Assembly (NCBI GenBank): GCA_025812035.1
Contig: GCA_025812035.1_4719.1
DNA length: 64,000 bases
From: a phage
Reading direction: 5' to 3' (one strand)
Below the pieces are notes generated by a model that had not been told where the DNA came from, searched no databases, and worked only from the letters and a program-made list of their open reading frames with translations. Positions 2,487 to 58,906 of this stretch are shown piece by piece; position 1 is the first letter of the stretch; the number at the start of each line of letters is the position of its first letter. The translations under genes and the position numbers were made by a program.

Positions 2487-2510
2487 GATTGAAATCTCGC
2501 TGGCTTGCTT

Positions 2511-2534
2511 CACCTAGGTAATATAGCCGTGAAA
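2511..2534. promoter_or_regulatory. conserved 24-nt motif CACCTAGGTAATATAGCCGTGAAA (copy 1 of 4), candidate phage promoter
   Basis: Near-identical copies at 17192, 45348 and 53508. Here it lies in the divergent region between the 1830-2486 (-) gene and the 2636-4099 (+) operon. Confidence 0.45.
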
Positions 2535-2635
2535 AATGTTGGAGTACATCGAATTCCATCATCGTGGCTATTTTATGGGCTAAGAGCCTAAACCAATCAT
2601 CTTCGGAATCATCATCTACGAAATAGGAACCTATC

Positions 2636-3462: not shown

Positions 3463-3490
3463 AAGCCTGTCCTTCGGGGCAGGCTTTTAT
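3463..3490 (+). terminator. canonical rho-independent terminator (10-bp stem, UUCG tetraloop, U-tract)
   Basis: AAGCCTGTCC-TTCG-GGGCAGGCTT followed by TTTAT, 6 nt after the stop of 2636-3457. Confidence 0.7.
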
Positions 3491-3564
3491 GCTGTTATTA
3501 TTGGGAATAAGAATTAACAAAACAGGAAGATGGTGTGGATATAACACAAAGGAGGGAAATGATT

Positions 3565-4099: not shown

Positions 4100-4104
4100 A
4101 AACC

Positions 4105-4134
4105 ATCCTCCCAACCCGTAAGGGAAGGGAGGAT
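4105..4134. terminator. conserved two-tier GC hairpin (family copy 1), putative bidirectional terminator
   Basis: ATCCTCCC-AACCCGTAAGGGAA-GGGAGGAT at a convergent gene junction. Confidence 0.55.
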
Positions 4135-4152
4135 GAAATATGCCGTTAAACG

Positions 4153-15102: not shown

Positions 15103-15183
15103 TTTAGATCTCTCTTTGTTAATGGTAAATAAATAACGGCATAAAAAGGGGACAACGCTGTCCCCGTGTTAGGTATTATCTGC

Positions 15184-16074: not shown

Positions 16075-16333
16075 CTAATTGCTCCCGTTGTTCTTTTAAG
16101 TATGCGGGAAGCTGGTCTTCCCGTACCGTTCCGATTTCTAACATGATGTACCAGCGTTGTTCGGAAGCCTGCCATTGAAAACTGCTCTGTAAACGTAGGA
16201 TGCTAGGATCATGTACCTTGCTTGCGCTGTAACGGTTGAACCAGCCCAGGTAAGCGGCTTTCCCCTCCTCATCGGCAACGTAACGCTGCACGCTGTTCTT
16301 CCCTTTGTTTTCGTATCCTGTTGCATGTATCAT
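16043..16333 (-). CDS. hypothetical small protein (~96 aa)
   Basis: ATG at 16333 overlaps the upstream stop as ATGA. ORF track gives 16043-16390. Confidence 0.5.
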   Translation of the reverse strand: MIHATGYENKGKNSVQRYVADEEGKAAYLGWFNRYSASKVHDPSILRLQSSFQWQASEQRWYIMLEIGTVREDQLPAYLKEQREQLDVLFSHHRGS

Positions 16334-17106: not shown

Positions 17107-17191
17107 CTAAAAAGATCCTCTGTTTTTTCACGTTAATTAAACAACGTATTGATTTCTATTCGATAGCAATACGAACATCGTACGTACGCAT

Positions 17192-17215
17192 CACTTAGGT
17201 AATATAGCCGTGAAA
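17192..17215. promoter_or_regulatory. conserved 24-nt motif (copy 2; CACTTAGGTAATATAGCCGTGAAA)
   Basis: One mismatch to the consensus. About 90 nt from the start of 16330-17106. Confidence 0.45.
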
Positions 17216-17858
17216 GGATTTGTGTTACAGAAAGGGTTTTGTTGTGTTTTAAGAAGGGATGGATAGTGATGTTATCTGAAAGGAGGATTTCAAGAAAGGT
17301 CTTGATTGAAGTAGGTGGAGTAAGTGAAGAGGTGAATAAACGAGAAGGGTTAGTTTGGTTGATGTAAGATGTTATCTTGTTATTGTTTTCATGTTTATCT
17401 TAGGTTATGTCTTAATTGTTCATATTCCTGATTGTTTAAGTTGTCTTATTTATCTTGTTTATATAAATAAAATTAAATTATAAAGTCAATCAACATGCTT
17501 ATAAGTTGGATAACTCAAAAAAACCATTTGTGATACTCTTCTTCACGTTGTTCATCAGAGTATCTCGTCTATACTCATTGCATTCGTATACGACATAACC
17601 GTTATACGCTAACGCTACGCTTATAGCTTGATAACTCTAAGGATAAAAACATAAACTCGCTTCGCTCGTTTAGTTTTTCTTTTTCTTAGAGTTATCTTGT
17701 TGCTCGTCTCTAAAGGACTTCGCTCCTCCCCCGTCCCCCGAAGGGGCCGAGGTCGTGGAAATTTTACTTTCCAAATACATTTACAACATCTGTAAACTTT
17801 TACTCCAGGTACTTAATCTTATCATTAGAAATTATCAAAGAGAATAATGACAGCATAA
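17216..17858. other. large noncoding region: candidate replication origin or noncoding RNA locus
   Basis: No ORF. C-depleted purine-rich stretch, AT-rich block (17455-17490), and five or more TTATCTT-type repeats. Confidence 0.35.
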
Positions 17859-17890
17859 CCTTCCTCCAACCCAACAGGGAAGGAGGAAGG
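17859..17890. terminator. conserved two-tier GC hairpin (family copy 4)
   Basis: CCTTCCTCC-AACCCAACAGGGAA-GGAGGAAGG, 3' of the 17906-18799 gene. Confidence 0.5.
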
Positions 17891-17905
17891 GAGAGATTAA
17901 TTCAA

Positions 17906-18799: not shown

Positions 18800-18854
18800 T
18801 TTCTTCCTCGATAGTTTGTACATCACTCTCAAAAGATGTAAGTGTTTACAGAAA

Positions 18855-29827: not shown

Positions 29828-29859
29828 CCCTCCTCCAACCCGTAAGGGAAGGAGGAGGG
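29828..29859. terminator. conserved two-tier GC hairpin (family copy 6)
   Basis: CCCTCCTCC-AACCCGTAAGGGAA-GGAGGAGGG at a convergent junction. Confidence 0.55.
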
Positions 29860-29868
29860 AATATGTTG

Positions 29869-30774
29869 TTATGCTGCGTATAACGTCAGATAACCTTCGA
29901 TGAGCGTATTCATCACACTGAGTTGGAGCACGACAGCTTTACTAACATCTGTACGTACACCGAATGGCAGTGCTTTGAATTGCTCTGGATCGGTTATTAC
30001 TTTCGCATTCTGTAAGTTGAGTGGTCCAGGTATTGCTGACAATACCCAGAGATCGTCCGTCGTAAGGTCGTCGATCTCTTCAGAGAGACCTAATTGCAAC
30101 GCGTTCATTTCCGCAATCAGTGCTTCCGATCGCGTATCACCTGAGGTTAACGTATACCCATCAGTGAGCGACGCTAGGACACCAGCTGACACGAACCAGT
30201 TGTACGAAACAATAGCACCTGGGAGTTTATCGCTATCTCGATCGATGAGATAATTCAGCCCAGCCAACATATTGTTGCGAATGAGGTTGTTAAGGTCGTT
30301 ATGTCCTGAAGTTAACTCAACAAGTAATTCACCAACCCATACTTGGTTACTGGGTTTAGGTGTTATCGCAATATGTATCGGTGATTTGGACTTATCCAGA
30401 TTCGCGTCGACGATTTCGGTTTTGTCGAGAAGGATGCCGTACGTTGATGCCAGGACAGGCAGTATCTCAGAAACCTTGGTTAACGCATCTAAGGTTTCGA
30501 TCTCGACAGGCCAGCGATGCTGTCCACCAGACCAAATACCCAGTTTGCCAAGATCGATGCGGTTATAATAGATGTCGACAGAGTTCACCAGCCCTGAACC
30601 AGGCTGGGGATGCACGGTTAACTTACTATTACGTTTGTACCCGGTACTTTCAGAAGCCTCACCGATAATCAGTTTATCCAGCGTCACGCCTCGAGCATCG
30701 AAATCGCTATGTTTTCGAATCAAACGAAAGAGAATTTCTTTCGATTCTAACCCCAGGATTTCACTGTACTCCAT
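29869..30774 (-). CDS. virion-module protein, paralog family V (member 1)
   Basis: YYNRIDLGKL motif shared with 31691-32542 and 32553-33488. Confidence 0.55.
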   Translation of the reverse strand: MEYSEILGLESKEILFRLIRKHSDFDARGVTLDKLIIGEASESTGYKRNSKLTVHPQPGSGLVNSVDIYYNRIDLGKLGIWSGGQHRWPVEIETLDALTKVSEILPVLASTYGILLDKTEIVDANLDKSKSPIHIAITPKPSNQVWVGELLVELTSGHNDLNNLIRNNMLAGLNYLIDRDSDKLPGAIVSYNWFVSAGVLASLTDGYTLTSGDTRSEALIAEMNALQLGLSEEIDDLTTDDLWVLSAIPGPLNLQNAKVITDPEQFKALPFGVRTDVSKAVVLQLSVMNTLIEGYLTLYAA

Positions 30775-41891: not shown

Positions 41892-43691
41892 TCAATCGAT
41901 TATGTCACGATCGTTAATTTCTACAATTTCTTCATCGAATCGACCGACGTCTTTCTTCAAGCCTGCATTTGTTGCTGCAACGTCATTTGCAATTTGTGGG
42001 GTAACGATTAACCGACCACGCTCGTCGATAGGTGCGTACATACTGAACTTCTGACGTCCGGTTGGTTCGGAGTGTGGAAGATTCAGATAGCTCGCACAGA
42101 ACGGGATGGAACCACTAACCAAACGACTCTCGTCAGCCAACGCAGCACCGCCTGCGTTTTGGCTCTGGAGAACAACATGCGTGCTCACTTTGAACAGCAT
42201 GCAATCACCCGGTGACTGAATCGATGTTGCCACTTTCTCACGCTTATCACGATTGCTCTGGATATTGAGAATCGCTTCTGTTGCAACTTGATTTCGCAAC
42301 GCCTTCTGTACATCGCGATTGGTCATCTCTTTACGGTTGTTCTGTCGTTTACCACGTTCTGTGGTTTTAAGATGGAACCCCAGTTTAAAGATGCTCTTAC
42401 GCACATCCTCCATGACATATTCCAACACCATCAATTCCTTACCGAACATCGTCGTGGTATCAACACGACTCATTTCGATAGTAACATTGTCAATCAGATA
42501 CGCCATAAATTCGTAGAAGTCATCGCAAGGAATATTTTCCTGTTTGAACTTCTTCTGCTGAATTTCGTCGACGTAAAGATCAAGGCTATCGATGTGGTGG
42601 TTTACATCACGCAACAAACGCGCATCCGCGTTGTTGTTATTAAAGATAATCAAACCGAGTAATGTACGCCAATGGTCTGGCGCATTAGCGAACTCTTCAA
42701 CCGGATAGTCTTCCGGAAAACGATCGTAATAGCGGTCGATGAGATACAAGAACGCACCGACAAGGCCAAGAACAATACGTTCCGTGCCTCCACGTCTTAC
42801 AGCAATTTGAATATCAGGATGTTTATAACGTACAGCGTTAGCGCTACGGCTTTTACCGCTCTTACTAATACTAAAGCCTTTAGGAATAACCCCCATGGTG
42901 CGATAGATTACCCATTGGTCGCGCGGAAAATCGCGTTCAGCAAGATTCCGTCCGGTTACCGCTTCGACACCCGCGAAACGTCGGAAACATTCACCTACCC
43001 CGTACTTCGCAAAGAGATAGTGACCCAATGTGGTTACACTGGTGTGGTTGATGTTGTCACCGTTCACTTTACTTTGTTTGGTAAGATGATAGATTTGCGA
43101 CCAGGGTAACGATAGATAGTGACGATAATCGACACCGGTTGGAGTATCATTACTCAGGAACTGATACGGCGTACGTTTAACTGTGATTTTGTCACGCGGA
43201 AGCATGATGAACGCCATGTCTTTCGTGTAACTGATTACAGGGTCAGCGAGTACCGCACTGAGAATAAAGTTTGCACCACGTAGACGCATTTTACCACCCT
43301 GCCCTACTGCGGGTAATAGGAGAGGGTGTCGGATAATGCAGTAGTCCTTTCCTGGTTCACGACGGTCACCTGATTCCATCGCGCCATACCAGCGGAATTC
43401 TAACATCACCATAAACACATCGGACGGCGCAAGGTCAAAGGTCAGCTTACCGCTATCCTTCCCTTTGGTTTTCTTTCCTCCGCTTAAGTAGTGAAACTGT
43501 TCGCGGGCCACACAACGACGTAGGCCATGATACACCAGATCCTTAGGTAAACTATCTTTGCTGTTCCGCCAAAGACGATCAACATAGGACTCAACATCTT
43601 GCATCTTATCGACGACGATGTTGCGCGCTATCTTCTCGTTCATCTTCGGTGCAAGCCCAGCGACAGCTTTGCAGAATCTAGGATCCATCAC
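41892..43691 (-). CDS. hypothetical protein (599 aa)
   Basis: Long ORF. No motif recognised. Confidence 0.6.
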   Translation of the reverse strand: MMDPRFCKAVAGLAPKMNEKIARNIVVDKMQDVESYVDRLWRNSKDSLPKDLVYHGLRRCVAREQFHYLSGGKKTKGKDSGKLTFDLAPSDVFMVMLEFRWYGAMESGDRREPGKDYCIIRHPLLLPAVGQGGKMRLRGANFILSAVLADPVISYTKDMAFIMLPRDKITVKRTPYQFLSNDTPTGVDYRHYLSLPWSQIYHLTKQSKVNGDNINHTSVTTLGHYLFAKYGVGECFRRFAGVEAVTGRNLAERDFPRDQWVIYRTMGVIPKGFSISKSGKSRSANAVRYKHPDIQIAVRRGGTERIVLGLVGAFLYLIDRYYDRFPEDYPVEEFANAPDHWRTLLGLIIFNNNNADARLLRDVNHHIDSLDLYVDEIQQKKFKQENIPCDDFYEFMAYLIDNVTIEMSRVDTTTMFGKELMVLEYVMEDVRKSIFKLGFHLKTTERGKRQNNRKEMTNRDVQKALRNQVATEAILNIQSNRDKREKVATSIQSPGDCMLFKVSTHVVLQSQNAGGAALADESRLVSGSIPFCASYLNLPHSEPTGRQKFSMYAPIDERGRLIVTPQIANDVAATNAGLKKDVGRFDEEIVEINDRDIID

Positions 43692-43727: not shown

Positions 43728-45203
43728 TTACTTTTTCGATGAAGCTTTCTCAAGAATCTTGAAAAAGGTCATACCTATACCAACAACGGCCGCGGTTATA
43801 CTCGCAGCGGCTTTCCAGACATCGACGTTACGTTGACGTCGCGCTTCTTCCGCTTCGCGTTGTCTTTTTGCTTCATCATCACGACGGCGTAGCTCAGTTG
43901 TGAATTCATCGTGCTTACGTTTCGCGTCCTCGTCTCGGCGACGCATTTCAGCGATAAGCTCATCATGCTTACGTTTTGCCTCTTCATCACGACGTTTAAG
44001 TTCAGCTTGATGTTCTTCTCGTATTTGTTTACGAAGATCATCTTGACGTTTCATTTCGGCTTGGTGGTGTTCCATCCTACGTTCAGTATCGTCTTTAAGC
44101 TGTTTAACAATTTCCGCATGTTGCTTATTTTGTCGTTCCGCATCGGTTTTATACAATTCGTGTAATTGCTTTATTTCCGATGCGTGAGCGTCAGCCTGTC
44201 GTTTCATTTCGTTGGTATGATCGACCTGCAGTTGCTTTATTTCAGCCATCAGCCCTTTAAGGGTTTCTTCTGTTGACTTACGTTCATAGCTACGTTGGTC
44301 GAAATCATTTTTGTAGGCTTCTTTTTGGATGGGGTCGCGCCAATGCAATGCCGATTCACGTGTCGGAAAAACATTGTACTTCCACATCTCTTTTTCCAAA
44401 TCTTCGACCGGTACGAAGACGGAGTCATTATTCCCGAAGGTAACCAACATACCTGGCGCGCCTGCTCCATTCGTTGGTTTTATTTCGAACGCTTTTCCCA
44501 GAACGTTAACCCATAAGCTATACGGATTATGAAAGTCTGGTGGCGTCCAATGGATAGTGAGTTGCGTTCCGAGAATCCGGAAACCCTCTGTTTTTCCCGT
44601 CAAGCTTCGCGCACACGTTGCGATGTAGGGGTGATCAATCCCTTTCGTAACGTGGTCTGCGCTTTTGTATTCTCCTTTAACTTTTACGACTGCCACGTTG
44701 ATTTGCGCGACATAAATAGGTTGATTAAAGTTCAACGTGTTGAGGTCAATTTGGCATACTTCATCCAGCGTATCGTACCAGTCTTGCTGGTCTAATAGAC
44801 GCGGTATTTTCTCCGTGTTAACGATGCGACGGATATGCGGTTTCCTTATCGCGTAACCTGTGCCGTTTTTAACACGAAGTATATCCCGACGTCTACCCGC
44901 GTAGACGAAGTTTCTGAATGCACCATTCGCATTAGATACGTCATGGCTGTCAACTATTACAGGACTACGAAATTTTGAACGCCTTACGATCCTGAATGTA
45001 TTGCCGTCCTCAACCCTACCAGGAATGTACTGGAACATATTGTCGGAGGTGATAACCAACACGGTATGGTTGGATTCATTAATACACGCCCATCCTAATT
45101 CCAGGTCATATAACGGTTCAGCATAACCGTCAATGCGATATGCGTGCGTACCATCCCACGGTTCGAACGCGGTATCACATATTGGCATGGAGGGCATCGT
45201 CAA
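43728..45203 (-). CDS. tail-anchored membrane protein with charged coiled-coil repeats
   Basis: Globular N-terminal domain, about 150 aa of K/R/E/D-rich coiled coil including three 18-aa tandem repeats, then C-terminal hydrophobic anchor AAASITAAVVGIGMTFF. Confidence 0.65.
   Translation of the reverse strand: MTMPSMPICDTAFEPWDGTHAYRIDGYAEPLYDLELGWACINESNHTVLVITSDNMFQYIPGRVEDGNTFRIVRRSKFRSPVIVDSHDVSNANGAFRNFVYAGRRRDILRVKNGTGYAIRKPHIRRIVNTEKIPRLLDQQDWYDTLDEVCQIDLNTLNFNQPIYVAQINVAVVKVKGEYKSADHVTKGIDHPYIATCARSLTGKTEGFRILGTQLTIHWTPPDFHNPYSLWVNVLGKAFEIKPTNGAGAPGMLVTFGNNDSVFVPVEDLEKEMWKYNVFPTRESALHWRDPIQKEAYKNDFDQRSYERKSTEETLKGLMAEIKQLQVDHTNEMKRQADAHASEIKQLHELYKTDAERQNKQHAEIVKQLKDDTERRMEHHQAEMKRQDDLRKQIREEHQAELKRRDEEAKRKHDELIAEMRRRDEDAKRKHDEFTTELRRRDDEAKRQREAEEARRQRNVDVWKAAASITAAVVGIGMTFFKILEKASSKK
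43860..44020. repeat. three imperfect ~54-bp tandem repeats inside the 43728-45203 CDS
   Basis: Encode ELKRRDEEAKRKHDELIA / EMRRRDEDAKRKHDEFTT / ELRRRDDEAKRQREAEEA. Coordinates approximate. Confidence 0.5.
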
Positions 45204-45347
45204 CCTCCATCAGATTGAAAACTATCACGCATAATGCATTTCCCTTTTCTTGTTCTTATCGAGCCGACAGCCGACGGTTTCAGCATCGTTCCTAGCGCGA
45301 GAACGACCTTACGTGTTGTCTATGCCTTATTCATCGCAGGCGTCTGT

Positions 45348-45371
45348 CACCTAGGTAATGTAAGCGTCAAA
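45348..45371. promoter_or_regulatory. conserved 24-nt motif (copy 3; CACCTAGGTAATGTAAGCGTCAAA)
   Basis: Part of the ~90-bp cassette 45348-45437 with a family hairpin. Confidence 0.45.
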
Positions 45372-45403
45372 TTTTTTCTATTTGCAACGATAAACAGCAT
45401 AGA

Positions 45404-45437
45404 AGCCTCCCCCAACCCTTGCGGGCTGAGGGAGGCT
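45404..45437. terminator. conserved two-tier GC hairpin (family copy 8)
   Basis: AGCCTCCC ... GGGAGGCT, 3' of the 740-aa gene. Confidence 0.5.
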
Positions 45438-45534
45438 GACTTATGTATCACGGTGCCGGATGAATGTCCGGTGCAATGAAACCATCTGCAACGTTGTCGT
45501 CAAGAATATCATCCAACGAAGCAGCTACGGTAGT

Positions 45535-47757
45535 TCAGTTAGTCTGAACCGGCAGCTTGATGTTTTCAGTGTAGACCTTACGCAGGTTCACGACGTTAAT
45601 CAGACCCAGCAGCGGGCAGTTGTTAACGAAGCGGCAGCGCGGCTGAACCATGGTTTCTTTAGAAACCTGACCGTTACGGGTAACCTGAGCAACAGATACC
45701 AGTTCCGGTACATACAGGAACATACCGAAGGTCAGCGGATCCGGAGAACCCTGGATACCACGAGACAGGGTCACGAAGATCTTATCACGCAGCAGGACGT
45801 TCGGGTTATCTACAACCACGAAGTTGAAGCTTACACCAACGGTACGGAAATCACCATCGGTCTGCAGGAACTGCGGGATGTAGTTGTCGGTTGCTACTAC
45901 GCAACGCGGTTTCTCATCAGCGTTGGAAGACAGCAGCTGCAGAGCTGGCTGATAACCAGACTCAGAGTACATGCGGTATGCCATCTCACGAATCACGTTC
46001 ATGATCGCAGCGGACACTTCAGCACGACGTTCTGCAGTGGTGGTACCCTGAACGGATTTCGCCAGGTCCAGGTTGATTTCTTCGAACCACGGACGGATCA
46101 GGTAACGACCGAAACCTTCGATCTGGATGTCACCGAACTGACGGAAGCGAGAGGTCGCAACTGCTTTCAGTGCGTCTTTGTAGCTGAACAGTTTCTCAAC
46201 CATCAGGTTGTCGAAACGTGCGTTAGCCGCTTGGATCAGAACGTCCAGGTCAGCAGCGTTTTCTTCCCAATCAAGCGGACGAGGAATGGAGAACGGAGCC
46301 AGCAGACCGATTGCGTAACGCTCTTGCTTCATGTTGAAGTCAAGGTGCTTACCACGTTCACGACGGTTGCTGTTGTTACGACGGATACGCAGTTCGTAAC
46401 CAACCAGTTTGAAGCTCAGGTCGTCAGCCAGGTCTTTGAATTCTTGGCTCTTACGCGGCTGTTCGATGTTGTCCTGATCAACCAGGCGATACAGTTCAGC
46501 GTTAGCGCCGTTAACACGCAGACCCGCTTTCTCTACGTTGGAAGAACCGTAAACTTCGATAGCCAGCTGAGCAGCGGATTTCGCATCGATGATGTCCTGC
46601 AGCGCTTCGGCTTTCGCACCTTTAACGTCAACGGTGTTCTCATCAACGAAGATGGAGTGAGTGTCGAACGCCAGGGTCATTTTGCGGAAGTCGCCTTCCA
46701 GAGATTTCTGGAAACCGTTGGTGATCAGACCGGATACGTCGAACGGAACGTAAGAGGTTTTGCTGTGCTTAGCGGATTTGATTTCCACCAGGATTTTGGT
46801 CAGCGTGATCTGAGCATCCAGCGCGTCGGTGTTGTCGCTGTAACCGTTAGCCAGAATGCTATCGTCTTCAGCGATACCGATCATGTCGATCAGTTTATCA
46901 ACAGCCAGGTAAGACGTTTTATAAGTTACGCCTTTAATTTCGATGTCACGCGGAGCAACGATAGCTTTGTCAACGAAGTACTGCGCGTTAGCATCGTCAG
47001 CACGATAGATCGGGTGCAGGTCGGTCACGTCGTTGGACAGAACGTCGTTGTACATGAACGCGTCCAGCAGCGGACGACGTACCCAATCAGCCGGAGTACC
47101 GTCAGCGTTACGACGCAGATGGTTGAATACCAGCGGACGACGGAAAGATACGTCATAACCGATCTGGTTCGGAGCCAGAACGATGGTGTTGTACAGTTCG
47201 TTACCCATGCGGCTCAGACGAGAAGCCTTCACGTTGAACACAACGGAGTACGGCATCATGTCGCGCAGTTCTTTCTGGTCGTAGGACAGCTGAACCAGTT
47301 CTTCAGATTCGCAACCGCAGGAATCAGCAGCCATCATGACGAAGTTAGAGCTGTCAACTTCACGACCTGACGGAGTGGTGCTGATGTTCATGGAACGTGC
47401 TTGTTTAGCGTATTCCACCGGGTTACCATGAGCCAGCATGATCAGTGCTGCTGCACGAGCCTGCTGTGCGTTCATGGTGAACAGCTGTTCTTCAATACGC
47501 TGCTTCTCTTCCGGAGTGGTGGTTTCGAAGCCCAGCATAGACAGAACCGGTTCTTCTGCTTTACGGATGTCGCTGCTGAAGCTCTTAACATCCATATCGT
47601 TAACCAGTTTGTCCATGGATTTGAAATCAACCTTAGAAGCAGATTCCATAGACAGGAAGGTGTTTTCCAGACCTTTGTCTGCTGGTTTGCTACCATTAGC
47701 GGTCAGGAACTGGCGAGTGGCCGCGACCTGCTGGCTAAGAAGGGTTTTATCATTCAT
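45535..47757 (-). CDS. major virion structural protein (~740 aa; major capsid candidate, tail sheath not excluded)
   Basis: Strongly optimised codons (CTG, CGT, GGT, ACC, GAA). Monocistronic between a promoter-like region and a hairpin. Size is typical of jumbo-phage capsid proteins. Confidence 0.5.
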   Translation of the reverse strand: MNDKTLLSQQVAATRQFLTANGSKPADKGLENTFLSMESASKVDFKSMDKLVNDMDVKSFSSDIRKAEEPVLSMLGFETTTPEEKQRIEEQLFTMNAQQARAAALIMLAHGNPVEYAKQARSMNISTTPSGREVDSSNFVMMAADSCGCESEELVQLSYDQKELRDMMPYSVVFNVKASRLSRMGNELYNTIVLAPNQIGYDVSFRRPLVFNHLRRNADGTPADWVRRPLLDAFMYNDVLSNDVTDLHPIYRADDANAQYFVDKAIVAPRDIEIKGVTYKTSYLAVDKLIDMIGIAEDDSILANGYSDNTDALDAQITLTKILVEIKSAKHSKTSYVPFDVSGLITNGFQKSLEGDFRKMTLAFDTHSIFVDENTVDVKGAKAEALQDIIDAKSAAQLAIEVYGSSNVEKAGLRVNGANAELYRLVDQDNIEQPRKSQEFKDLADDLSFKLVGYELRIRRNNSNRRERGKHLDFNMKQERYAIGLLAPFSIPRPLDWEENAADLDVLIQAANARFDNLMVEKLFSYKDALKAVATSRFRQFGDIQIEGFGRYLIRPWFEEINLDLAKSVQGTTTAERRAEVSAAIMNVIREMAYRMYSESGYQPALQLLSSNADEKPRCVVATDNYIPQFLQTDGDFRTVGVSFNFVVVDNPNVLLRDKIFVTLSRGIQGSPDPLTFGMFLYVPELVSVAQVTRNGQVSKETMVQPRCRFVNNCPLLGLINVVNLRKVYTENIKLPVQTN

Positions 47758-47906
47758 TGAAAGTATCCTTTACAGAATTAACTTATATAAGTCGGTCGAT
47801 AGACCATAGCGTACACGCGTGCATGCGCCACTATAGTATCAGTAAACACTTACCGTTGTTTAGGCTGTGATACAACACTAAAAATGCCGCATAACTTTTT
47901 CCTACG

Positions 47907-48566: not shown

Positions 48567-50177
48567 ATGGACCCAAAACAGATAGCCATTAAGATTATTA
48601 CGTTACTGTTTCGTAACGCACAATTGAACCATCCAGATCCCAGTACGATCGACCATGTTAAATCCGTCTTAGATAAAGTCGAACCCCCGAAAAACCATCT
48701 CGCTACGGACATAGATAGAGAGGTTTTCAACAACCTGATGAATACCATTCATTGGATGTTGGAACAACCATTATCGGAACCTTTCGATAAACAACAGTTG
48801 TTACAAAGGATACGTTTGGATTGTCTTGAGCAAAGCAATCTTTACGAGATTCTTGCCGACGGACTGTACGATATCGAAGACGATGCTCATATCAGTAAGG
48901 TCTGTTCGCTTTATTACAACGAATTGCGTAACTTGGTTACCCGTCGTCGTGTTTTCGAAACCTTTAAAAACACATACATGGATATCAGTAATGGGCGTCT
49001 TGGGGATAAAGAATTTTTCGACGCGATGGCGAATTTGAAACTCTCGCTAGACAGTATCGAAATGGATACCGAAAATCCCGAAGAGATGTCGTGTATGATT
49101 GACGGTTTTATCGCCGACAGTGAAGACGATATCGAGAAAGTCGAACGTATGTTCATCAAAGCGATGGAACGTAACAGTCCTGAAGGTGGATTTGTAACCG
49201 GCTGGCAAGGTTTTAATAAAATGCTAGGGTCGGTCGGTGTTTTACGTCGCGGTACCTTAGGACTGATTGGTGCGATGCAGCACAGGAACAAGTCGGGCGT
49301 GCTGTTAAAACTGTTCACACATCTGGCGTTGTACAATAAACCTCATTTCTTTTTTCCGGAGCGAGCAAAGAAAGCATTACTGATTCATTTGTCAACAGAA
49401 AACGAAGTAGAAGAAAACACGCTTCAGATATACAAAAACATGCGAGAACAGGAAACAGGCGAATATGTCGATATTCGTAAGATTGACCCTCGCGAGGCAT
49501 CACGTTATGTGTTGAAGGTTTTCAATGACGCGGGTTTCTCTGTGTGTATGCGTCGTGTTGATGGGATGAGCTATAAACAACTTGCGAACCTCATCGACCA
49601 TTTTGAACGCATGGGCTATGAAGTCATGGCGTTGTTCATCGACTATCTGAAAATGTTCTCATCGGAAGGGCTGGATAGAAACGGACCAACCGGCGCATGG
49701 CTACAAGAACTCTTCAACAAAGTCCGTAACCTCTGCAGCGTTAAACGTATTTTAGGTATGACCGTACACCAGCTATCATCCGACGCGAAGATGCGTGCGC
49801 GTGACGGTAACGATGAAGAGTTTGTTGACCAGGTCGCAGGCTTAAGTTACTGGGATGGCTGTAAAGGGATTGACCGTGAGATCGATCTTGAAGTGATTGT
49901 TGATATCGTTAAGGAACCGGGTAAACGTCAAAGCTGGCAAGTCTTTGCATTAGGGAAAGACCGTCAACCGGATAACGGTTCAACGAAACCTGAGGATAAA
50001 CATTTCACGATGCCGTTCCAAACCATCGGGATGCTTCCTGATGATTACGGTAAGAAAGCAGTATACTGCCGCAAGGTTGGCGGACAACCTGTCTCTGAGG
50101 GAGGCAAAGGTCCGTGGAACAAGTTCGATGAAAACGCAGCGCCGAGCAATGAATTACAATTTGATTTAGAATTTTAA
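48567..50177 (+). CDS. DnaB-like replicative helicase (RecA-fold), non-canonical P-loop
   Basis: Walker B-like ALFIDYL, H3-like VHQLSSDAK, and a P-loop-position segment GAMQHRNKS. ATG at 48567 has SD AAGGA; ORF track start is 48483. Confidence 0.5.
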   Translation: MDPKQIAIKIITLLFRNAQLNHPDPSTIDHVKSVLDKVEPPKNHLATDIDREVFNNLMNTIHWMLEQPLSEPFDKQQLLQRIRLDCLEQSNLYEILADGLYDIEDDAHISKVCSLYYNELRNLVTRRRVFETFKNTYMDISNGRLGDKEFFDAMANLKLSLDSIEMDTENPEEMSCMIDGFIADSEDDIEKVERMFIKAMERNSPEGGFVTGWQGFNKMLGSVGVLRRGTLGLIGAMQHRNKSGVLLKLFTHLALYNKPHFFFPERAKKALLIHLSTENEVEENTLQIYKNMREQETGEYVDIRKIDPREASRYVLKVFNDAGFSVCMRRVDGMSYKQLANLIDHFERMGYEVMALFIDYLKMFSSEGLDRNGPTGAWLQELFNKVRNLCSVKRILGMTVHQLSSDAKMRARDGNDEEFVDQVAGLSYWDGCKGIDREIDLEVIVDIVKEPGKRQSWQVFALGKDRQPDNGSTKPEDKHFTMPFQTIGMLPDDYGKKAVYCRKVGGQPVSEGGKGPWNKFDENAAPSNELQFDLEF

Positions 50178-50202
50178 ACGCAAAAAAAAAGAATGTACGG
50201 TT

Positions 50203-50234
50203 CCCTCCTCCAACCCGTAAGGGAAGGAGGAGGG
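50203..50234. terminator. conserved two-tier GC hairpin (family copy 9)
   Basis: CCCTCCTCC-AACCCGTAAGGGAA-GGAGGAGGG at a convergent junction, preceded by A9. Confidence 0.55.
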
Positions 50235-50249
50235 TTATGACCGTGTTGG

Positions 50250-50576
50250 CTAACTTATCGTCATGAATTCACTCGGTGAGAATTTCCAACCATTCTCATT
50301 GAGAAGTGTGTTGAGTTTCGCTGCAACGATAAGCCATGCATGCATAGCCGTTACGTCGTATTGGCGATTTACCCGACGTTGGTTTTCGATATTGATTTGC
50401 TCCTGTTCAGTGATGTTTGGATAAAGTGCGATAGCGCTGGGCTTACCCAAAGCGCTAGTCATCACCGCGGTACATTCACTGATAATGTTGTTTAAGTGGT
50501 AGTTGTACACCGTTCCACGCATGACACGATGACGGCATTCGATAATAGCGTCGTAAATGATTTCTCGAGTAATCAT
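50250..50576 (-). CDS. hypothetical protein (108 aa)
   Basis: ORF. Confidence 0.5.
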   Translation of the reverse strand: MITREIIYDAIIECRHRVMRGTVYNYHLNNIISECTAVMTSALGKPSAIALYPNITEQEQINIENQRRVNRQYDVTAMHAWLIVAAKLNTLLNENGWKFSPSEFMTIS

Positions 50577-51609: not shown

Positions 51610-51683
51610 CGTTTTACCTTTCTATGTTAGGTGGGTTGCGGATAGAAGAATCAATGCATAGACTGATTTAAGTTTGTTAAGGT

Positions 51684-52586
51684 TTACTTAGTCTTCGAGT
51701 TACAAGGACTGACCTGTTGTTGTACTCGTTGAATTGTGTCGTAGTACGGGTTAGATTGGTTGAACATGTTGTTGTGTGGATGATAGCCGTATGGCGCATT
51801 TTGCCTTGTTGATGAGAAACCTTGTTGAGAAGGACGATTTGAATTAACCGCGAGTACGTAGTAAACCAAATTTTGACGGTCGAACGTTCCTTCGTTTTTG
51901 AAGGTGTCGGCGTAGGTGCTTATCGCTGGAGCGAGTCTATCACCATCGGCGGTAATAATTGTACCGTCTGGGTAAACTTCACGAACGACGCACCATGTTC
52001 CGATAAGAACGTCTTTGGGTGGCGTATTGCCGTATCCGGTTGTAACGGTAAGGTAAGTATCGAACCCTTCAGAACAACAAGGATGACGATAGATAGGTCC
52101 TGTCATTTCCGTTCTATCGGTATCATCGCATTTCTCTATTGAGAGCGATGATGTGTCGGTTTTGAAATTGTCAAATTCTTTCTTTAAGTCGATTACAGGT
52201 TCTTTCGTATAGTACTTCTTGATTGCTTTGACGTAAAGATCAGGAACGGTTGTCAGCATTCCGTTATACCTGATTCTCAGGTTTTCGAGTAATCCAAAGA
52301 TACTCGCGCATGCTTGTTCGCGAGGTTTTGTAAGATAAGAGATCCCCCCAGGAACGCTGGGATCTTTGAGAAAGAAGATTGCGTTATTGTCGTTGTGTGG
52401 TGCATTGAAGAAAACGATTGATTCGATATATACGGAGCATAGGCTGTCGTTGGCGTCGTCAGATAACACCCAGATGCACTCATCGGTCGTCTTGTTTAAA
52501 AGTTCTGTTTTGTCCACCAAACGTTGTTTCATTGCGAGGAAATGTGCCTGTTGTTCAGCGGATAATTCACGATAAATAGTGGTCAT
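51684..52586 (-). CDS. paralog family Y protein (member 1)
   Basis: VREVYPDGTIIT and CxxxxDxYLT(V/I)T motifs shared with 52672-53451. ATG at 52586 has SD AAGGAG. Confidence 0.55.
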   Translation of the reverse strand: MTTIYRELSAEQQAHFLAMKQRLVDKTELLNKTTDECIWVLSDDANDSLCSVYIESIVFFNAPHNDNNAIFFLKDPSVPGGISYLTKPREQACASIFGLLENLRIRYNGMLTTVPDLYVKAIKKYYTKEPVIDLKKEFDNFKTDTSSLSIEKCDDTDRTEMTGPIYRHPCCSEGFDTYLTVTTGYGNTPPKDVLIGTWCVVREVYPDGTIITADGDRLAPAISTYADTFKNEGTFDRQNLVYYVLAVNSNRPSQQGFSSTRQNAPYGYHPHNNMFNQSNPYYDTIQRVQQQVSPCNSKTK

Positions 52587-52671
52587 ACTCGGCTCCTTGA
52601 TTACGATAAGGATGATTGCGGTTTTGTGATGCTGGTAGGGCCCTAAACAAAGGAGCCCTACCAATATTGGG

Positions 52672-53451
52672 TTACTCAGGATCGGCGTAGAAATGATGGG
52701 GATAGCCGGAGTACGATCCCGCGTTACCGGCTATGGATTTTTTCTGGGAATCGACGACGAGCGCATAGAACTGTCGGGAATTTGTTAGCGTTGAGAAATA
52801 AGAGGAAAGGACTTTTTCATTCAACGCATCGCAAGGTAGACAGGTGCGACCGCAAAACGTCACAATACGACCGTCAGGATAGATCTCACGAATCATTCTC
52901 CATTCGCCGATATCAACCGGCGATGGCGCTGCTACAGCACCCGTTATTGTTAAGTAACGATCGTACGTGGTGTGGCATTCTGGATGAATGTAGATCGGTT
53001 GGGTATCAGTGCTTTCGTTTTCTACCTGATCTTTGCTTACGTATACCTCAAGATAAATCGTTGGTAGTCCGGTTAGAACGCCGGTATCGCGACGTTTTTT
53101 GGTAATCCGGGGACGGATATTATCGAGCACACCTTCCAGTTTTTCTGCGATTTCGTCAGCCGGTAATATATACCCGTATGTTGGTTCTAGATCATCATCG
53201 TGACTGAATAAGATACGACAGTCGTTGTTATTTTCTGGTGCTTCAGGCGGAAAGATGATGGCTTGAACCGTATGACGTTCTGCGATATAAAATCCTTCAG
53301 GTCCCTCAGTTTTGGTAAGTGTAAAGGACCAGGATGAATGATCTTCAAGTGATGTGCCTTCCAGGAAAAAGTTCGTCCGGATTGGTGCGTCCCATTTTGT
53401 GATCATATTGGCGTGACCGATAGCGCCTAACTTTTGATAAATATCTGTCAT
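52672..53451 (-). CDS. paralog family Y protein (member 2)
   Basis: IREIYPDGRIVT. ATG at 53451 has SD GAGGA; ORF track start is 53547. Confidence 0.55.
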   Translation of the reverse strand: MTDIYQKLGAIGHANMITKWDAPIRTNFFLEGTSLEDHSSWSFTLTKTEGPEGFYIAERHTVQAIIFPPEAPENNNDCRILFSHDDDLEPTYGYILPADEIAEKLEGVLDNIRPRITKKRRDTGVLTGLPTIYLEVYVSKDQVENESTDTQPIYIHPECHTTYDRYLTITGAVAAPSPVDIGEWRMIREIYPDGRIVTFCGRTCLPCDALNEKVLSSYFSTLTNSRQFYALVVDSQKKSIAGNAGSYSGYPHHFYADPE

Positions 53452-53507
53452 GATTGTATCCTCGGTTGTTAAGAGAAATTTACAGCGATAACAGTAACCG
53501 TTGTTAT

Positions 53508-53531
53508 CACCTAGGTAATATAGTCGTGAAA
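53508..53531. promoter_or_regulatory. conserved 24-nt motif (copy 4; CACCTAGGTAATATAGTCGTGAAA)
   Basis: Part of the ~90-bp cassette 53508-53597. Confidence 0.45.
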
Positions 53532-53565
53532 TAAACTGGATTAACAAGAATAAGACAGCATAGAA

Positions 53566-53597
53566 CCCTCTCCCAACCCATCAGGGAAGGGAGAGGG
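53566..53597. terminator. conserved two-tier GC hairpin (family copy 10)
   Basis: CCCTCTCCC-AACCCATCAGGGAA-GGGAGAGGG. Confidence 0.5.
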
Positions 53598-53601
53598 AAT
53601 A

Positions 53602-54969
53602 TTAAACGGTTGGACGAACGGTATTGTCTTTTTCTGGTGCAATCCATAACGTGACTGTGCCATGGCATGTCCACTGTGGTTCGCGTACAGATGAACCTGC
53701 CATTGTGACAGCGCAATCGGTGCGCATGATGACCCCGTACGCTTCGCAGAGGTTGTTATCCTGCATCCACACAACTTTAGCGGGCATACCGGGATACAAC
53801 AGATCCATGTTTGCATACTCCCACACCAACTGCATTGTCCTGCCGCGTAATCCAGCAGTATTACTTAATTCACGCCATCGGTTATCGGTTACGCGCCCCA
53901 TCCCTTTCGCCACCTTCACGTTATCGCTACGTTCTTCAGTTACGTACTCGCTGACGTTTACGGTACGACTGATTATCGTATCGCCTCCTTTTGATAATGT
54001 CATTCCCTGACTCATCTGACTTGCCGAAACAAAACGTCCGCCAGCATTACCTAATAGCGAAGACGCGTTATTGATGTCGCTTACCGACGCCCCTCTCGTA
54101 CATGCAATTTCCACGTATTTATCACGATTGATCCAGGTTTTGTCCATACCTGGAAACATATCGGCAGGATAGTTGTAAAAGATAGCTGTACGTCGACCGT
54201 CAGAGAAACGGGTTTCGTCGTATAACGGATAGATATACAGATACGGAGATTGATAATAACAACCGACATCCGCTGAATAAATACCAACCTGGTTCTGGAT
54301 TTTATCTACGAGATCCATTGCGTTGGTACCGTGGGGGAGAATAAGCAATTTGAATGGGTTGTCGTTATTCGGTGCAACGATATCCACACCCTGCATTTTG
54401 AATCCGGTGTCAGCTTCAACCGCAGAAAGTATCTTACTGAATTCGAGTCGCAATACATCCAGAACTTTCGATCCGGTATAGTTTTCACCGGTTTCTGATT
54501 GCATGAAGCTTTCAAGAACAGGATCGAACAGTTGAAATTGAAGATCGACCATTTGTTCGTAGTCTTTCTTCGAAGAATCGGTTGCGGTGCGTTCATCGGT
54601 AGCAGACATACGGCTGTCTACGGTTGTTAAACAAACCGCCCGATAGACATAGGCTTGTGTAGCATCGTCTACGGTTTGGCGTTGTCCACGCATCAGGCTG
54701 TATGCCTGTACGATGACACGCATCTTAAGTTGTTGTTGATACGGTAAAATGTATTTTCCGTAATTGCCTGGTGGGAACTTTACAGAGATATAAAGTTCAT
54801 CTCCTGCGTTACGTTCGTAGTCCCGATACGTGTGGACTTGAGTCACTAAAGGAACAGACACCGTCATTGACGGCGTGATTAATTCCGCGGTGACTTTATA
54901 CGCAACAGCAACTGCCTCCTGCGCAAACGTACCGATATACCGTCCTAACGGCGTCTGTTTGTAATCCAT
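53602..54969 (-). CDS. hypothetical virion-module protein (455 aa)
   Basis: Long ORF. Confidence 0.6.
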   Translation of the reverse strand: MDYKQTPLGRYIGTFAQEAVAVAYKVTAELITPSMTVSVPLVTQVHTYRDYERNAGDELYISVKFPPGNYGKYILPYQQQLKMRVIVQAYSLMRGQRQTVDDATQAYVYRAVCLTTVDSRMSATDERTATDSSKKDYEQMVDLQFQLFDPVLESFMQSETGENYTGSKVLDVLRLEFSKILSAVEADTGFKMQGVDIVAPNNDNPFKLLILPHGTNAMDLVDKIQNQVGIYSADVGCYYQSPYLYIYPLYDETRFSDGRRTAIFYNYPADMFPGMDKTWINRDKYVEIACTRGASVSDINNASSLLGNAGGRFVSASQMSQGMTLSKGGDTIISRTVNVSEYVTEERSDNVKVAKGMGRVTDNRWRELSNTAGLRGRTMQLVWEYANMDLLYPGMPAKVVWMQDNNLCEAYGVIMRTDCAVTMAGSSVREPQWTCHGTVTLWIAPEKDNTVRPTV

Positions 54970-58818: not shown

Positions 58819-58906
58819 CGCAGATTCCTGTTTGAAAGATAAGATATCACATGATGGTTGACAGCATAAAGCCCACCCCGAAGGGCGGGCTGTTTATGCG
58901 TACTGG

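Follow-up and report, generated by a model that had tools for sequence, protein, structure and literature searches.

Leftward terminator and early-promoter junctions predicted in a close relative of the nucleus-forming phage Goslar

INTRODUCTION

What is the role of a repeated arrangement of a 24-nt motif, a short sequence element and a hairpin that lies between genes of a jumbo phage? We asked this of a 64-kb window, the whole stretch of DNA analyzed here, which is the left end of the genome of a close relative of the Escherichia phage Goslar (89 to 97% identity to Goslar) and carries nearly all of its genes on the minus strand. An earlier note on this DNA had described a conserved cassette of about 90 bp at two places (cassettes 1 and 2) and an apparently split copy at 17 kb, and had offered two readings: a terminator followed by a promoter for leftward transcription, or a plus-strand promoter for a structured RNA.

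Goslar is a phiKZ-like, nucleus-forming jumbo phage (chimallivirus) of E. coli. It is the virion RNA polymerase that serves the early genes of phiKZ-like phages. The Goslar annotation contains several split RNA polymerase beta-type subunits. One virion RNA polymerase subunit of Goslar, gp196, co-localizes with the injected DNA inside the vesicle. In the Goslar transcriptome, 175 of 249 genes are detectable at 5 min (bioRxiv 10.1101/2023.09.20.558163), so "early" is a broad class.

A search of viral contigs for relatives of the major head protein (MCP) recovered Goslar and two near-identical uncultivated genomes and no others, and an exact-pattern scan for a conserved noncoding block of the window (described below) likewise found only these three. 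Since these genomes are too similar for covariation analysis, we used paralogous copies of the elements instead. In the literature, we found no description of promoters or terminators for the Goslar lineage.

RESULTS

A probable early promoter on the minus strand

Read on the minus strand, the 24-nt motif is TTTCACGGCTATATTACCTAGGTGA, and in this reading it agrees with the early-promoter consensus sequences published for phiKZ-like phages (PMC7058600, Table 2). The window holds four copies, compared to 0.08 expected, with position weight matrix (PWM) scores of 44 to 53 bits, compared to at most 12.6 bits in shuffled genomes; the fourth copy, at 2510-2534, has no hairpin (Table 1). Three of the four contain TATATTAC, and copy 1 contains TACATTAC. 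The early-promoter consensus of phage 201phi2-1 finds exactly these four sites, all on the minus strand (0.07 expected), although it matches them only at the limit of three mismatches, and the N1M2 consensus has no match in the window within three mismatches. In this lineage the consensus takes its own form, TTTCACGRCTAYATTACCTAGGTGA, plus an additional TAATCCA element upstream, so that the extended promoter reads TAATCCA-N5-TTTCACGGCTATATTACCTAGGTGA.

The placement of the motif follows that of the genes. The 12 to 13 copies in Goslar are likewise confined to the minus strand, 20 to 150 nt upstream of a minus-strand gene in each case, and the window copies lie 23 to 149 nt upstream of minus-strand start codons; every copy in both genomes is co-oriented with the minus-strand gene immediately downstream (site contexts were assigned by hand against the deposited annotation). 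The Goslar counterparts of the window copies at 45347, 53507, 17191 and 2510 are at 43251, 49717, 15052 and 2552, respectively. In the window, the cassette 2 promoter precedes genes 52672-53451 and 51684-52664 with a 55-nt 5' untranslated region (UTR), the promoter at the 17-kb site precedes gene 16330-17106 (84-nt 5' UTR), and the fourth promoter precedes gene 1830-2486 (23-nt 5' UTR) and is divergent from the plus-strand gene 2636-3457. Searches of Pfam and PHROGs gave no matches for the five genes immediately downstream of promoters or for two window-specific genes, and ARAGORN found no tRNA or tmRNA in the entire window.

One of the Goslar copies precedes chmA, the gene for the nuclear shell. 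The published chmA "TSS sequence" begins 91 nt upstream of the ATG, at most 2 nt from the 5' edge of the motif, and in the Goslar RNA-seq data chmA transcript levels are normal in infections halted at the early vesicle stage. The 24-nt motif is thus most likely a phiKZ-like early promoter, predicted to be used by the virion RNA polymerase on the minus strand.

Hairpins and tails of the phiKZ terminator type

The other half of each cassette, recorded on the plus strand as ACAGCATAGAA plus a hairpin, has as its reverse complement a C-rich/G-rich hairpin followed by TTCTATGCTGT. The element ACAGCATA starts at plus-strand positions 45394, 53555 and 17850, and the pattern ACAGCATAR occurs 8 times, compared to 0.64 expected. 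As minus-strand RNA, the three hairpins have predicted stabilities of -24.5 to -33 kcal/mol and folding z-scores of -4.8 to -6.0. Across eight paralogous hairpin copies, including that of cassette 2, standard pairs fill 96 of 96 pair cells and compensatory double changes are seen at 6 of 12 pairs, compared to 0 to 2 in slid controls. The hairpin of copy 1 is more stable as minus-strand RNA than as plus-strand RNA (-33 versus -24.5 kcal/mol, a difference of 8.5 kcal/mol) because two G.U pairs occur only on the minus transcript.

The phiKZ terminator consensus, built on mapped 3' ends (PMC10914365), has the tail YTTATKYYGT. The three tails here share the form UUCUAUGCUGU and agree with it, with C instead of T before TAT in copies 1 and 2. 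When the full 30-nt phiKZ consensus was used with at most three mismatches, the simple hairpin at 58861 matched (0 expected by chance) and the cassette hairpins did not. Because the latter exceed the consensus length by about 12 nt, we regard them as variants of the phiKZ terminator and not as consensus copies; what they share with it is only the tail and the design of C-rich and G-rich arms. Their U-tracts are poor (4 U in 8), and a generic intrinsic-terminator scan (a hairpin plus at least 5 T in 8) flagged none of the three.

In the window, the hairpin-plus-tail family has at least nine members, on both strands, and those outside genes all lie 5 to 128 nt after a same-strand stop codon. The tails are two-sided at convergent gene pairs and occur on the minus side only in the cassettes (Fisher P = 0.015). 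Two-tier hairpins between co-directional genes are exceptions, of which Goslar has four (P = 1.3e-3). A scan for the hairpin only, with no strict tail, also picked up a two-tier hairpin at 50203, where a plus-strand helicase gene and the minus-strand gene 50250-50576 converge, and a Goslar variant at 15768. The hairpin of cassette 1, which is conserved in Goslar and the two uncultivated relatives, lies 97 nt past the major head gene's stop codon, that of cassette 2 lies 5 nt after gene 53602-54969, and that of the 17-kb site is at the 3' end of the virion structural gene 17906-18823. Judged from sequence and predicted folding, the hairpin with its tail is a putative intrinsic terminator, a variant of the phiKZ type.

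Table 1. Positions of the predicted promoters and terminators and of two genes at cassette 1
Feature	Position	Strand	Remarks
Putative early promoter, cassette 1	45344..45383	-	Core TTTGACGCTTACATTACCTAGGTGA, 45347-45371; PWM 44.1 bits; matches 201phi2-1 consensus
Putative early promoter, cassette 2	53504..53543	-	Core 53507-53531; PWM 53.4 bits; matches 201phi2-1 consensus
Putative early promoter, 17-kb site	17188..17227	-	Core 17191-17215; PWM 51.0 bits; matches 201phi2-1 consensus
Putative early promoter, fourth copy	2507..2546	-	Core 2510-2534; no terminator upstream
Hairpin, cassette 1	45404..45437	-	15-bp continuous stem, GCAA loop; -33 kcal/mol, z = -6.0
Tail, cassette 1	45394..45403	-	TC-TATGCTGT; ACAGCATAGA of the earlier note on the plus strand
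Two-tier hairpin, cassette 2	53566..53597	-	9 bp, 2x2 internal loop, 3 bp, tetraloop; -26.6 kcal/mol, z = -4.8
Tail, cassette 2	53555..53565	-	TTC-TATGCTGT
Putative two-tier terminator hairpin, 17-kb site	17859..17890	-	-24.5 kcal/mol, z = -4.9; same hairpin in Goslar
Putative terminator tail, 17-kb site	17850..17858	-	T-TATGCTGT; Goslar variant TTTATGTTTGT
Putative bidirectional two-tier terminator	4104..4146	+	Convergent gene pair; TATG tails on both sides
Putative two-tier terminator	29828..29869	+	Convergent gene pair; tails on both sides; putative terminator in Goslar annotation
Two-tier hairpin	50203..50246	+	Variant tail TTATGACCGT
Putative simple-hairpin terminator	58861..58891	-	GCCCGCCC-TTCG-GGGTGGGC-TTTATGCTGT; putative terminator in Goslar annotation
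Putative simple-hairpin terminator	15136..15165	-	Next co-directional gene 37 nt downstream
Putative simple-hairpin terminator	3463..3495	+	3' of plus-strand gene 2636-3457
Major head protein gene	45535..47757	-	Goslar gp041 annotation; upstream of cassette 1
nvRNAP beta-like subunit gene	41892..43691	-	phiKZ gp123 homolog; second gene downstream of cassette 1 promoter

Two abutting elements in each cassette

The pieces listed in the earlier note (motif, ACAGCATA and hairpin) are all present, with enrichment and folding far above chance. Its motif sites were also right, with coordinates that need a shift of one nucleotide (to starts of 45347, 53507 and 17191), and the spacing that it called identical is nearly so, with 47 or 48 nt, depending on the cassette, from motif start to ACAGCATA start. 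Read on the minus strand, 22 or 23 nt separate the tail from the promoter core. Copies 1 and 2 have no conserved sequence in this spacer, so the cassette is better described as two abutting elements than as the single conserved unit of about 90 bp that had been proposed. The two elements usually occur apart, in that the majority of early promoters lack a neighboring terminator and the majority of terminators lack a neighboring promoter. The supposed split copy at 17 kb is a separate putative terminator and promoter on either side of a 634-nt noncoding region that Goslar has as well. Within this region, whose part between the extended promoter and the tail is 17228-17849, the block at 17.5 to 17.8 kb is strongly conserved and rich in structure. 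A third cassette, with a 25-nt gap, is found in Goslar at 86687-86790. In phiKZ, 8 of 14 early-promoter-like sites that we examined have a hairpin and TATG 11 to 30 nt upstream, compared to 3.6% of random positions.

The cassettes lie directly 3' of one minus-strand gene and directly 5' of the next. The cassette 1 promoter precedes a homolog of gp040 (ATG at 45197, 149-nt 5' UTR, with a Shine-Dalgarno sequence). The gene after that encodes a protein related to phiKZ gp123 (BLASTP E = 3e-56, 24% identity over about 580 amino acids), which is a subunit of the non-virion RNA polymerase (nvRNAP) (PMC7618050). In phiKZ, a junction of a terminator and TATATTAC likewise lies directly 3' of the MCP gene, ahead of gp121 to gp123. 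A plus-strand open reading frame of 81 amino acids at 45234-45479 was rejected as spurious; it crosses the promoter and the hairpin, is not annotated in Goslar and has no counterpart at cassette 2. Goslar gp047, which overlaps both promoter and terminator, is likewise a probable mis-annotation, and both annotations can be corrected.

DISCUSSION

A predicted junction of two leftward transcription units

Because the motif matches the early-promoter consensus and the hairpin and tail match the terminator, we read each cassette as the junction of two leftward transcription units, a terminator followed by an early promoter, and give this reading a probability of roughly 0.87. Of the two possibilities raised in the earlier note, it is the leftward one that gene orientation, consensus matches, the position between flanking genes and the minus-only G.U pairs favor. 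It draws on what is observed at the cassettes: their sequence and position, the strand that they occupy, covariation at the RNA level, the matches to family consensus sequences and the synteny shared with phiKZ. From these we infer transcript 5' and 3' ends, the acting polymerase and timing as follows. A polymerase arriving from the right would transcribe the hairpin and the tail U(U/C)UAUGCUGU and terminate there. The extended early promoter starts about 10 nt past the tail; if phiKZ is a guide, the multisubunit RNA polymerase packaged in the virion would use it right after DNA injection, with transcription starting near GTGA. The terminator would thereby set the 3' end of the upstream mRNA and block read-through from a late or otherwise-timed upstream unit into the early unit. 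At cassette 1, the upstream unit would be the very highly expressed major head gene, whose transcripts are late and are reduced when the phage nucleus cannot form (Goslar RNA-seq data), and the downstream early unit would include the nvRNAP subunit, presumably needed early.

Alternative explanations

The tail could have a second function, with its TATG serving also as the core of a late promoter for the nvRNAP, so that termination is coupled to re-initiation. The phiKZ late consensus is T-3 A T G+1, with TATG at the start site as its sole defining feature, and several simple-hairpin terminators (15136 and 58861, for example) lie 13 to 45 nt upstream of the next co-directional gene at sites with no other recognizable promoter. 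However, conservation of the tail is just as strong at the genome end and where genes converge, places in which a promoter would serve no purpose; GCTATG occurs at phiKZ p119L and in the region upstream of the window MCP gene with neither a hairpin nor the CTGT extension; and the cassettes have a dedicated promoter anyway. We consider this second function unlikely.

It is similarly unlikely that the cassettes are mobile or recombinogenic modules, like the PeSL (promoter-early stem-loop) elements of T4-type phages, with repeated copies that would mediate the shuffling of early genes. Cassettes 2 and 3 do resemble each other beyond the consensus in both spacer and promoter, the sequences upstream of the promoters form subfamilies, and 1.78 kb directly downstream of cassette 2 (51668-53446, two open reading frames) is absent in Goslar. 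Yet there is no matching cassette at the other end of this indel, each genome has only three cassettes, and the position of cassette 1 is syntenic with phiKZ, which implies long-term stability. Mobility would be at most a side effect of a regulatory role.

We also consider it improbable, and put forward only as speculation, that the hairpin with UAUGCUGU is either a specificity determinant for the nvRNAP, through re-initiation at TATG, or a 3'-end tag for phage factors, for example in mRNA export from the phage nucleus. If either role were real, the cassette would be a conserved switch point for the handover between two phage polymerases.

The signals might instead be of host type, a sigma-70 promoter and a standard intrinsic terminator for E. 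coli RNA polymerase, and TATATT does resemble a -10 box. In a loose scan for sigma-70 promoters (-35 and -10 hexamers, 16- to 18-nt spacing, at least 9 of 12 matches), the copy at 17201 passed with 9 of 12, but this is within the expectation from shuffled sequence and cassettes 1 and 2 were not flagged. Conservation spans 25 to 40 nt, far more than the -10 and -35 hexamers, and the hairpins fail the U-tract criterion. Given also that the virion RNA polymerase handles early genes in phiKZ-like phages and that the Goslar enzyme is found with the injected DNA in the vesicle, host-type signals are very unlikely.

Still less probable is the other reading in the earlier note, in which the motif is a plus-strand promoter for a short structured RNA that has the hairpin at its end or, at 17 kb, for a noncoding RNA of about 650 nt. 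The hairpins also fold as plus-strand RNA (-22.6 to -24.5 kcal/mol, z = -4.3 to -6.2), and the conserved block at 17.5 to 17.8 kb is structure-rich, but all 16 to 17 motif copies in the window and Goslar face the adjacent minus-strand gene, the family consensus TATATTAC lies on the minus strand and the copy at 2510 lacks any hairpin. In addition, the conserved tail is at the minus-strand 3' side of the hairpin, two base pairs of copy 1 are lost on the plus strand, and a search of Rfam with positions 17000-18000 gave no match at E <= 1.

The RNase III sites between T7 early genes have a stem interrupted by an internal loop, and the two-tier hairpin recalls them, but a processing site of this kind is just as improbable here, since the stem of 12 bp plus a 2x2 loop is shorter than typical RNase III substrates (about two helical turns), the conserved directional tail and the sites at the genome end and at the ends of convergent genes suit termination, and mapped 3' ends of transcripts were what defined the related phiKZ motif.

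Comparison with known systems

As probable junctions of a terminator and an early promoter, the cassettes are ordinary transcription punctuation, new instances in the Goslar lineage of element types known from phiKZ and 201phi2-1, and will thus not surprise a specialist. The result is a usable map of putative early promoters and terminators for this lineage, the model for nucleus-forming phages in E. coli. It predicts about 12 to 13 early transcription units and the expression of a subunit of the second RNA polymerase from a promoter directly after the capsid gene.

T7 also combines its own polymerase and promoter consensus with hairpin terminators that have a specific downstream sequence (Tphi; class I and II terminators). 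In contrast to the multisubunit beta/beta'-like enzymes here, the T7 polymerase has a single subunit, and its consensus is unrelated. The PeSL cassettes of T4-type phages, in which a stem-loop and an early promoter are repeated beside variable early genes, are a similar module, and an indel does lie beside cassette 2. However, PeSL promoters use the host sigma-70 polymerase and other sequences, whereas only three copies are found here, one of them anciently syntenic, with no sign of copies flanking mobile units on both sides.

The closest likeness is to the phiKZ-like phages. The phiKZ early promoter TATATTAC has the same type of AT-rich core as the motif here, with a TTT-purine-rich sequence upstream and GTG downstream; the 201phi2-1 form is TTTRARR-BTATATTACDWHDGTG, and variants are also known from OBP, N1M2 and EL. 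In these phages, as here, the promoters are multi-copy and co-oriented with the downstream gene, one precedes the nuclear shell gene, and split beta/beta' RNA polymerase subunits are encoded. Between 18 and 32 early promoters have been reported for phiKZ, compared to about 12 to 13 copies in the Goslar lineage, which has the upstream TAATCCA element as an extra.

The terminator of phiKZ and 201phi2-1, BCCYCCCCHWWDGGGRRGGBYTTATKYYGT, was defined by ONT-cappable-seq (PMC10914365, PMC11512511). Its 5' arm is C-rich and its 3' arm G-rich, as here; the tail TTATGCTGT fits TTATKYYGT; and in both cases the elements lie just 3' of genes and are bidirectional at convergent pairs. The stem is minimal in phiKZ and longer here, either two-tier (9 bp, 2x2 loop, 3 bp) or a continuous 15 bp, and the cassette hairpins resemble the elongated "motif A+B" hairpins of 201phi2-1. 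The gp120 (MCP)-gp121 junction of phiKZ matches cassette 1 in gene order (helicase, gp119, MCP, junction, one to two small genes, gp123), in the order of the elements and in their tight spacing (16 nt in phiKZ, 22 nt here). Its hairpin is a simple one of 9 bp, compared to the 15-bp stem of cassette 1; beyond the consensus elements the sequences cannot be aligned, and the proteins are only about 24% identical. Across this distance, the junction of MCP gene, putative terminator and putative early promoter has been kept between E. coli and Pseudomonas phages.

The cassette is read on the minus strand

The window is 89 to 97% identical to the left end of the genome of Escherichia phage vB_EcoM_Goslar (Goslar; NC_048170), a phiKZ-like, nucleus-forming jumbo phage whose annotation includes split multisubunit RNA polymerase genes. 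Because almost all long open reading frames (ORFs) of the window lie on the minus strand, the cassette elements are to be read on that strand. We found the motif, the ACAGCATA(G/A) element and the hairpin at all three sites named in the earlier note, together with a fourth copy of the motif. The spacing, described there as identical, is nearly so, with 47 nt from motif start to ACAGCATA start in cassette 1 and 48 nt in cassette 2. Chance explains neither the motif (4 copies in the window versus 0.08 expected), nor its position weight matrix (PWM) scores (44 to 53 bits; shuffled genomes reach at most 12.6), nor the folding of the three hairpins (z-scores of -4.8 to -6.0).

Plus-strand coordinates of the cassette elements in the window
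Element	Cassette 1	Cassette 2	17-kb site	Fourth copy
Motif, 24-25 nt	45347-45371	53507-53531	17191-17215	2510-2534
ACAGCATA(G/A), start	45394	53555	17850	
Hairpin	45404-45437	53566-53597	17859-17890	

The motif resembles phiKZ-family early promoters

On the minus strand the 24-nt motif reads TTTCACGGCTATATTACCTAGGTGA, and we predict that it serves as a phiKZ-family early promoter. Early-promoter consensus sequences published for related jumbo phages are TATATTAC for phiKZ, TTTCARRYAKATATTATYWAAGTGWA for N1M2 and TTTRARR_BTATATTACDWHDGTG for 201phi2-1 (PMC7058600); the early motifs of phiKZ-like phages are AT-rich, are centered near -10 and are attributed to the virion RNA polymerase (PMC7598289). 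When the 201phi2-1 consensus was used to search the window, the hits were the four copies and nothing else, each on the minus strand (0.07 expected), and a PWM scan of Goslar found 12 strong copies and 1 weak copy, also all on the minus strand. The window copies precede minus-strand start codons by 23, 55, 84 or 149 nt. A Goslar copy (172963-172987) lies upstream of chmA, the nuclear shell gene, for which the published "TSS sequence" begins 91 nt before the ATG and at most 2 nt from the 5' edge of the motif.

Upstream of the core, the Goslar promoters form subfamilies (TAATCCAACATT; CAACACAAATCC; CCAGTTTA; GAAAAAA(A)), the last of which includes the cassette 1 and chmA promoters. This grouping points to promoters that were duplicated or underwent gene conversion, or to sub-classes that differ in strength.

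The hairpin and tail resemble phiKZ terminators

In minus-strand order the hairpin is followed by the tail TTC-TATGCTGT, and ACAGCATAGAA plus the hairpin is a putative phiKZ-type terminator. The phiKZ terminator motif obtained from mapped 3' ends, BCCYCCCCHWWDGGGRRGGBYTTATKYYGT, consists of a stem-loop and, after it, a TTAT region (PMC10914365); 201phi2-1 has a very similar motif, and a second motif there lengthens the hairpin (PMC11512511). The tails fit TTATKYYGT, with C instead of T before TAT in copies 1 and 2, and the full phiKZ consensus matches a simple-hairpin member at 58861 (chance expectation, 0). In a scan for a stable hairpin plus TATKYYGT, the window yielded nine sites and Goslar at least 19, on both strands, and those outside genes are directly 3' of a same-strand gene. 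Across eight paralogous two-tier hairpins, 96 of 96 cells (100%) are paired, and compensatory double changes occur in 6 of the 12 pairs, compared to 0 to 2 in slid controls. The copy 1 hairpin folds at -33 kcal/mol as minus-strand RNA; the loss of two G.U pairs to C.A mismatches limits the plus-strand RNA to -24.5. This asymmetry is strand-specific evidence of leftward transcription. All three hairpins fail a canonical U-tract terminator scan and would therefore be a phage-specific kind of terminator.

Hairpin forms and tail sides differ with gene arrangement

Scanned for hairpins alone, the window has 6 of the two-tier form and Goslar has 15. Two-tier or long hairpins stand at transcription-unit ends (at convergent pairs, at the end of the genome or before an early promoter) in 13 of 17 cases, whereas 9 of 10 simple hairpins lie between co-directional genes (P = 0.0013 for this post hoc hand classification). 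At convergent gene pairs the hairpin has TATG tails at both sides (...CATAA-[hairpin]-AATATGCTGT); cassette 2 and the 17.9-kb site have the minus-side tail only, and cassette 1 also has TTATG on the plus side, five nt beyond the hairpin. When sites were classed by the deposited Goslar annotation, the plus-side tail tracked an arriving plus-strand gene (8/9 versus 2/8; P = 0.015). We interpret the tail as a likely termination element and the two-tier hairpin as its presumptive "full stop" form.

The phiKZ late promoter consensus is T-3ATG+1 (PMC7598289), and the tail TATG might double as a late promoter at co-directional sites. Simple-hairpin terminators at 15136-15165 and 58861-58891, and at 87243, 110459, 180577 and 225519 in Goslar, lie 13 to 45 nt before the next co-directional start codon with no recognizable promoter between, so the downstream genes need read-through or initiation at the tail TATG. 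However, the tail is equally conserved where a promoter could serve no use, and known or likely late promoters (phiKZ p119L and the region upstream of the major head protein gene [MCP; 45535-47757, minus strand]) have GCTATG without a hairpin, which makes this dual role improbable.

The two-tier hairpins at 4104, 17859, 29828, 50203 and 53566, and 12 of the 15 in Goslar, share one genomic orientation whichever strand is terminated (plus strand, CCYTCYYCC-AA-CCC-GTAA-GGG-AA-GGRRGARGG). Minus transcripts therefore have U.U internal loops and a UUAC loop, and plus transcripts have A.A loops and a GNRA loop. Spreading of copies through gene conversion could explain this orientation, as could the geometry of convergent pairs. 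The two-tier hairpin at the convergent junction of the helicase (plus) and gp044-homolog (minus) genes (50178-50249) has a variant plus-side tail, TTATGACCGT, and on its minus side a nine-T run 12 nt off and no TATG; it may terminate in a different way.

Two independent elements are recurrently juxtaposed

The end of the tail is separated from the promoter core by 22 nt (cassette 1) or 23 nt (cassette 2). Both cassettes are present in Goslar, which has a third at 86687-86790 where this gap measures 25 nt. Since about 12 nt of the gap is extended promoter (TAATCCA-N5), terminator and promoter are almost contiguous. Cassettes 1 and 2 do not share a conserved spacer, although cassettes 2 and 3 are alike, and the other nine Goslar promoters have no adjacent terminator; thus, the cassette consists of two independent elements that recur side by side, rather than one repeat of 90 nt.

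The supposed split copy at 17192 proved to be a terminator and a promoter separated by 634 nt, with a non-coding region (17228-17849) between them that is also present in Goslar, and nothing at this site points to an insertion splitting a former cassette. This region falls into two parts. One, 17497-17835, shares 98.5% identity with Goslar, versus 74 to 89% for the flanking genes (top 1.7% of 300-nt windows), and is full of inverted repeats (fold z of about -4 on both strands); the other, 17230-17495, is AT-rich, diverged and indel-rich, with GTTATCT/GATAAC repeats in two orientations. No Rfam match, tRNA or convincing ORF was found in the region, which may be an origin-like DNA element or may encode an unannotated RNA.

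The stretch immediately after the cassette 2 promoter (51668-53446) is missing in Goslar, where the shared ATG is followed by no more than a short stub. The two minus-strand ORFs concerned (52672-53451 and 51684-52664), whose proteins match nothing in Pfam or PHROGs, are variable early cargo. In Goslar, the ORF from the shared ATG would run about 25 codons; gp047 (62 aa, 49584-49772) overlaps the predicted early promoter and terminator tail and is probably a mis-annotation. This 1.78-kb indel is the sole hint of a PeSL-like recombination role for the cassette, and its other boundary offers no support, leaving such a role very doubtful.

Host sigma-70 signals and an RNase III site are weak explanations; a generic sigma-70 scan did not flag cassettes 1 and 2. 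A plus-strand promoter driving a small RNA, one of two models in the earlier note, is contradicted by the orientation of the motif, the strand of the consensus, the position of the tail and the fourth copy, which has no hairpin. The other model, a leftward terminator and then a promoter, is most probably the correct explanation. The cassette is real and, as inferred from sequence like every functional statement here, functional.

Cassette 1 has a counterpart in phiKZ

Cassette 1 separates MCP from a unit comprising a gp040 homolog (43728-45197) and ORF 41892-43691. MCP is a late gene, and its transcripts drop when phage nucleus formation is blocked. The ORF is homologous (E = 3e-56) to phiKZ gp123, which belongs to the non-virion RNA polymerase as a beta-like subunit (PMC7618050). 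According to the phiKZ scheme, this polymerase is made in the course of infection and transcribes the late, and possibly the middle, genes (PMC7598289), so an early promoter is expected ahead of the gp123-homolog unit.

The 149-nt 5' untranslated region (UTR) of the gp040 homolog (45198-45346) and the 97-nt MCP 3' UTR (45438-45534), which holds a small hairpin (CCGGACATTCATCCGG), are 98 to 99% identical across four known genomes; this may merely reflect high conservation of the MCP region. An 81-aa plus-strand ORF (45234-45479) spanning the cassette 1 promoter and hairpin, opposite to both neighbors and unannotated in Goslar, is probably spurious. Upstream of MCP (47758-47906, minus strand) are two TATG sites; ACGCTATGGTC, 59 nt before the MCP ATG, is similar to p119L (TTGCTATGTAG) and is a candidate late promoter of MCP.

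The order helicase, gp119, MCP gp120, gp121, gp122, gp123 is identical in phiKZ, where GGCCCTCCC-TTCG-GGGAGGGCT, then TTATGTTGT, 16 nt and TTTAAGATCTATATTAC directly follow the MCP stop, making the same junction as in cassette 1. In the first 150 kb of phiKZ, a hairpin plus TATG lies 11 to 30 nt upstream of 8 of 14 early-promoter-like sites, versus 3.6% of random positions. The architecture, which the earlier note had proposed to seek elsewhere in the genome, thus recurs in the third Goslar cassette and at these phiKZ sites, and the shared junction and the 8 of 14 sites make it a family trait. We found no paper that describes promoters or terminators for Goslar or its relatives, and the deposited Goslar record has some putative terminators only. 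The promoter and terminator types and their consensus sequences are already established for phiKZ and 201phi2-1; the copies here differ in having a lineage-specific promoter consensus and a longer, two-tier hairpin.
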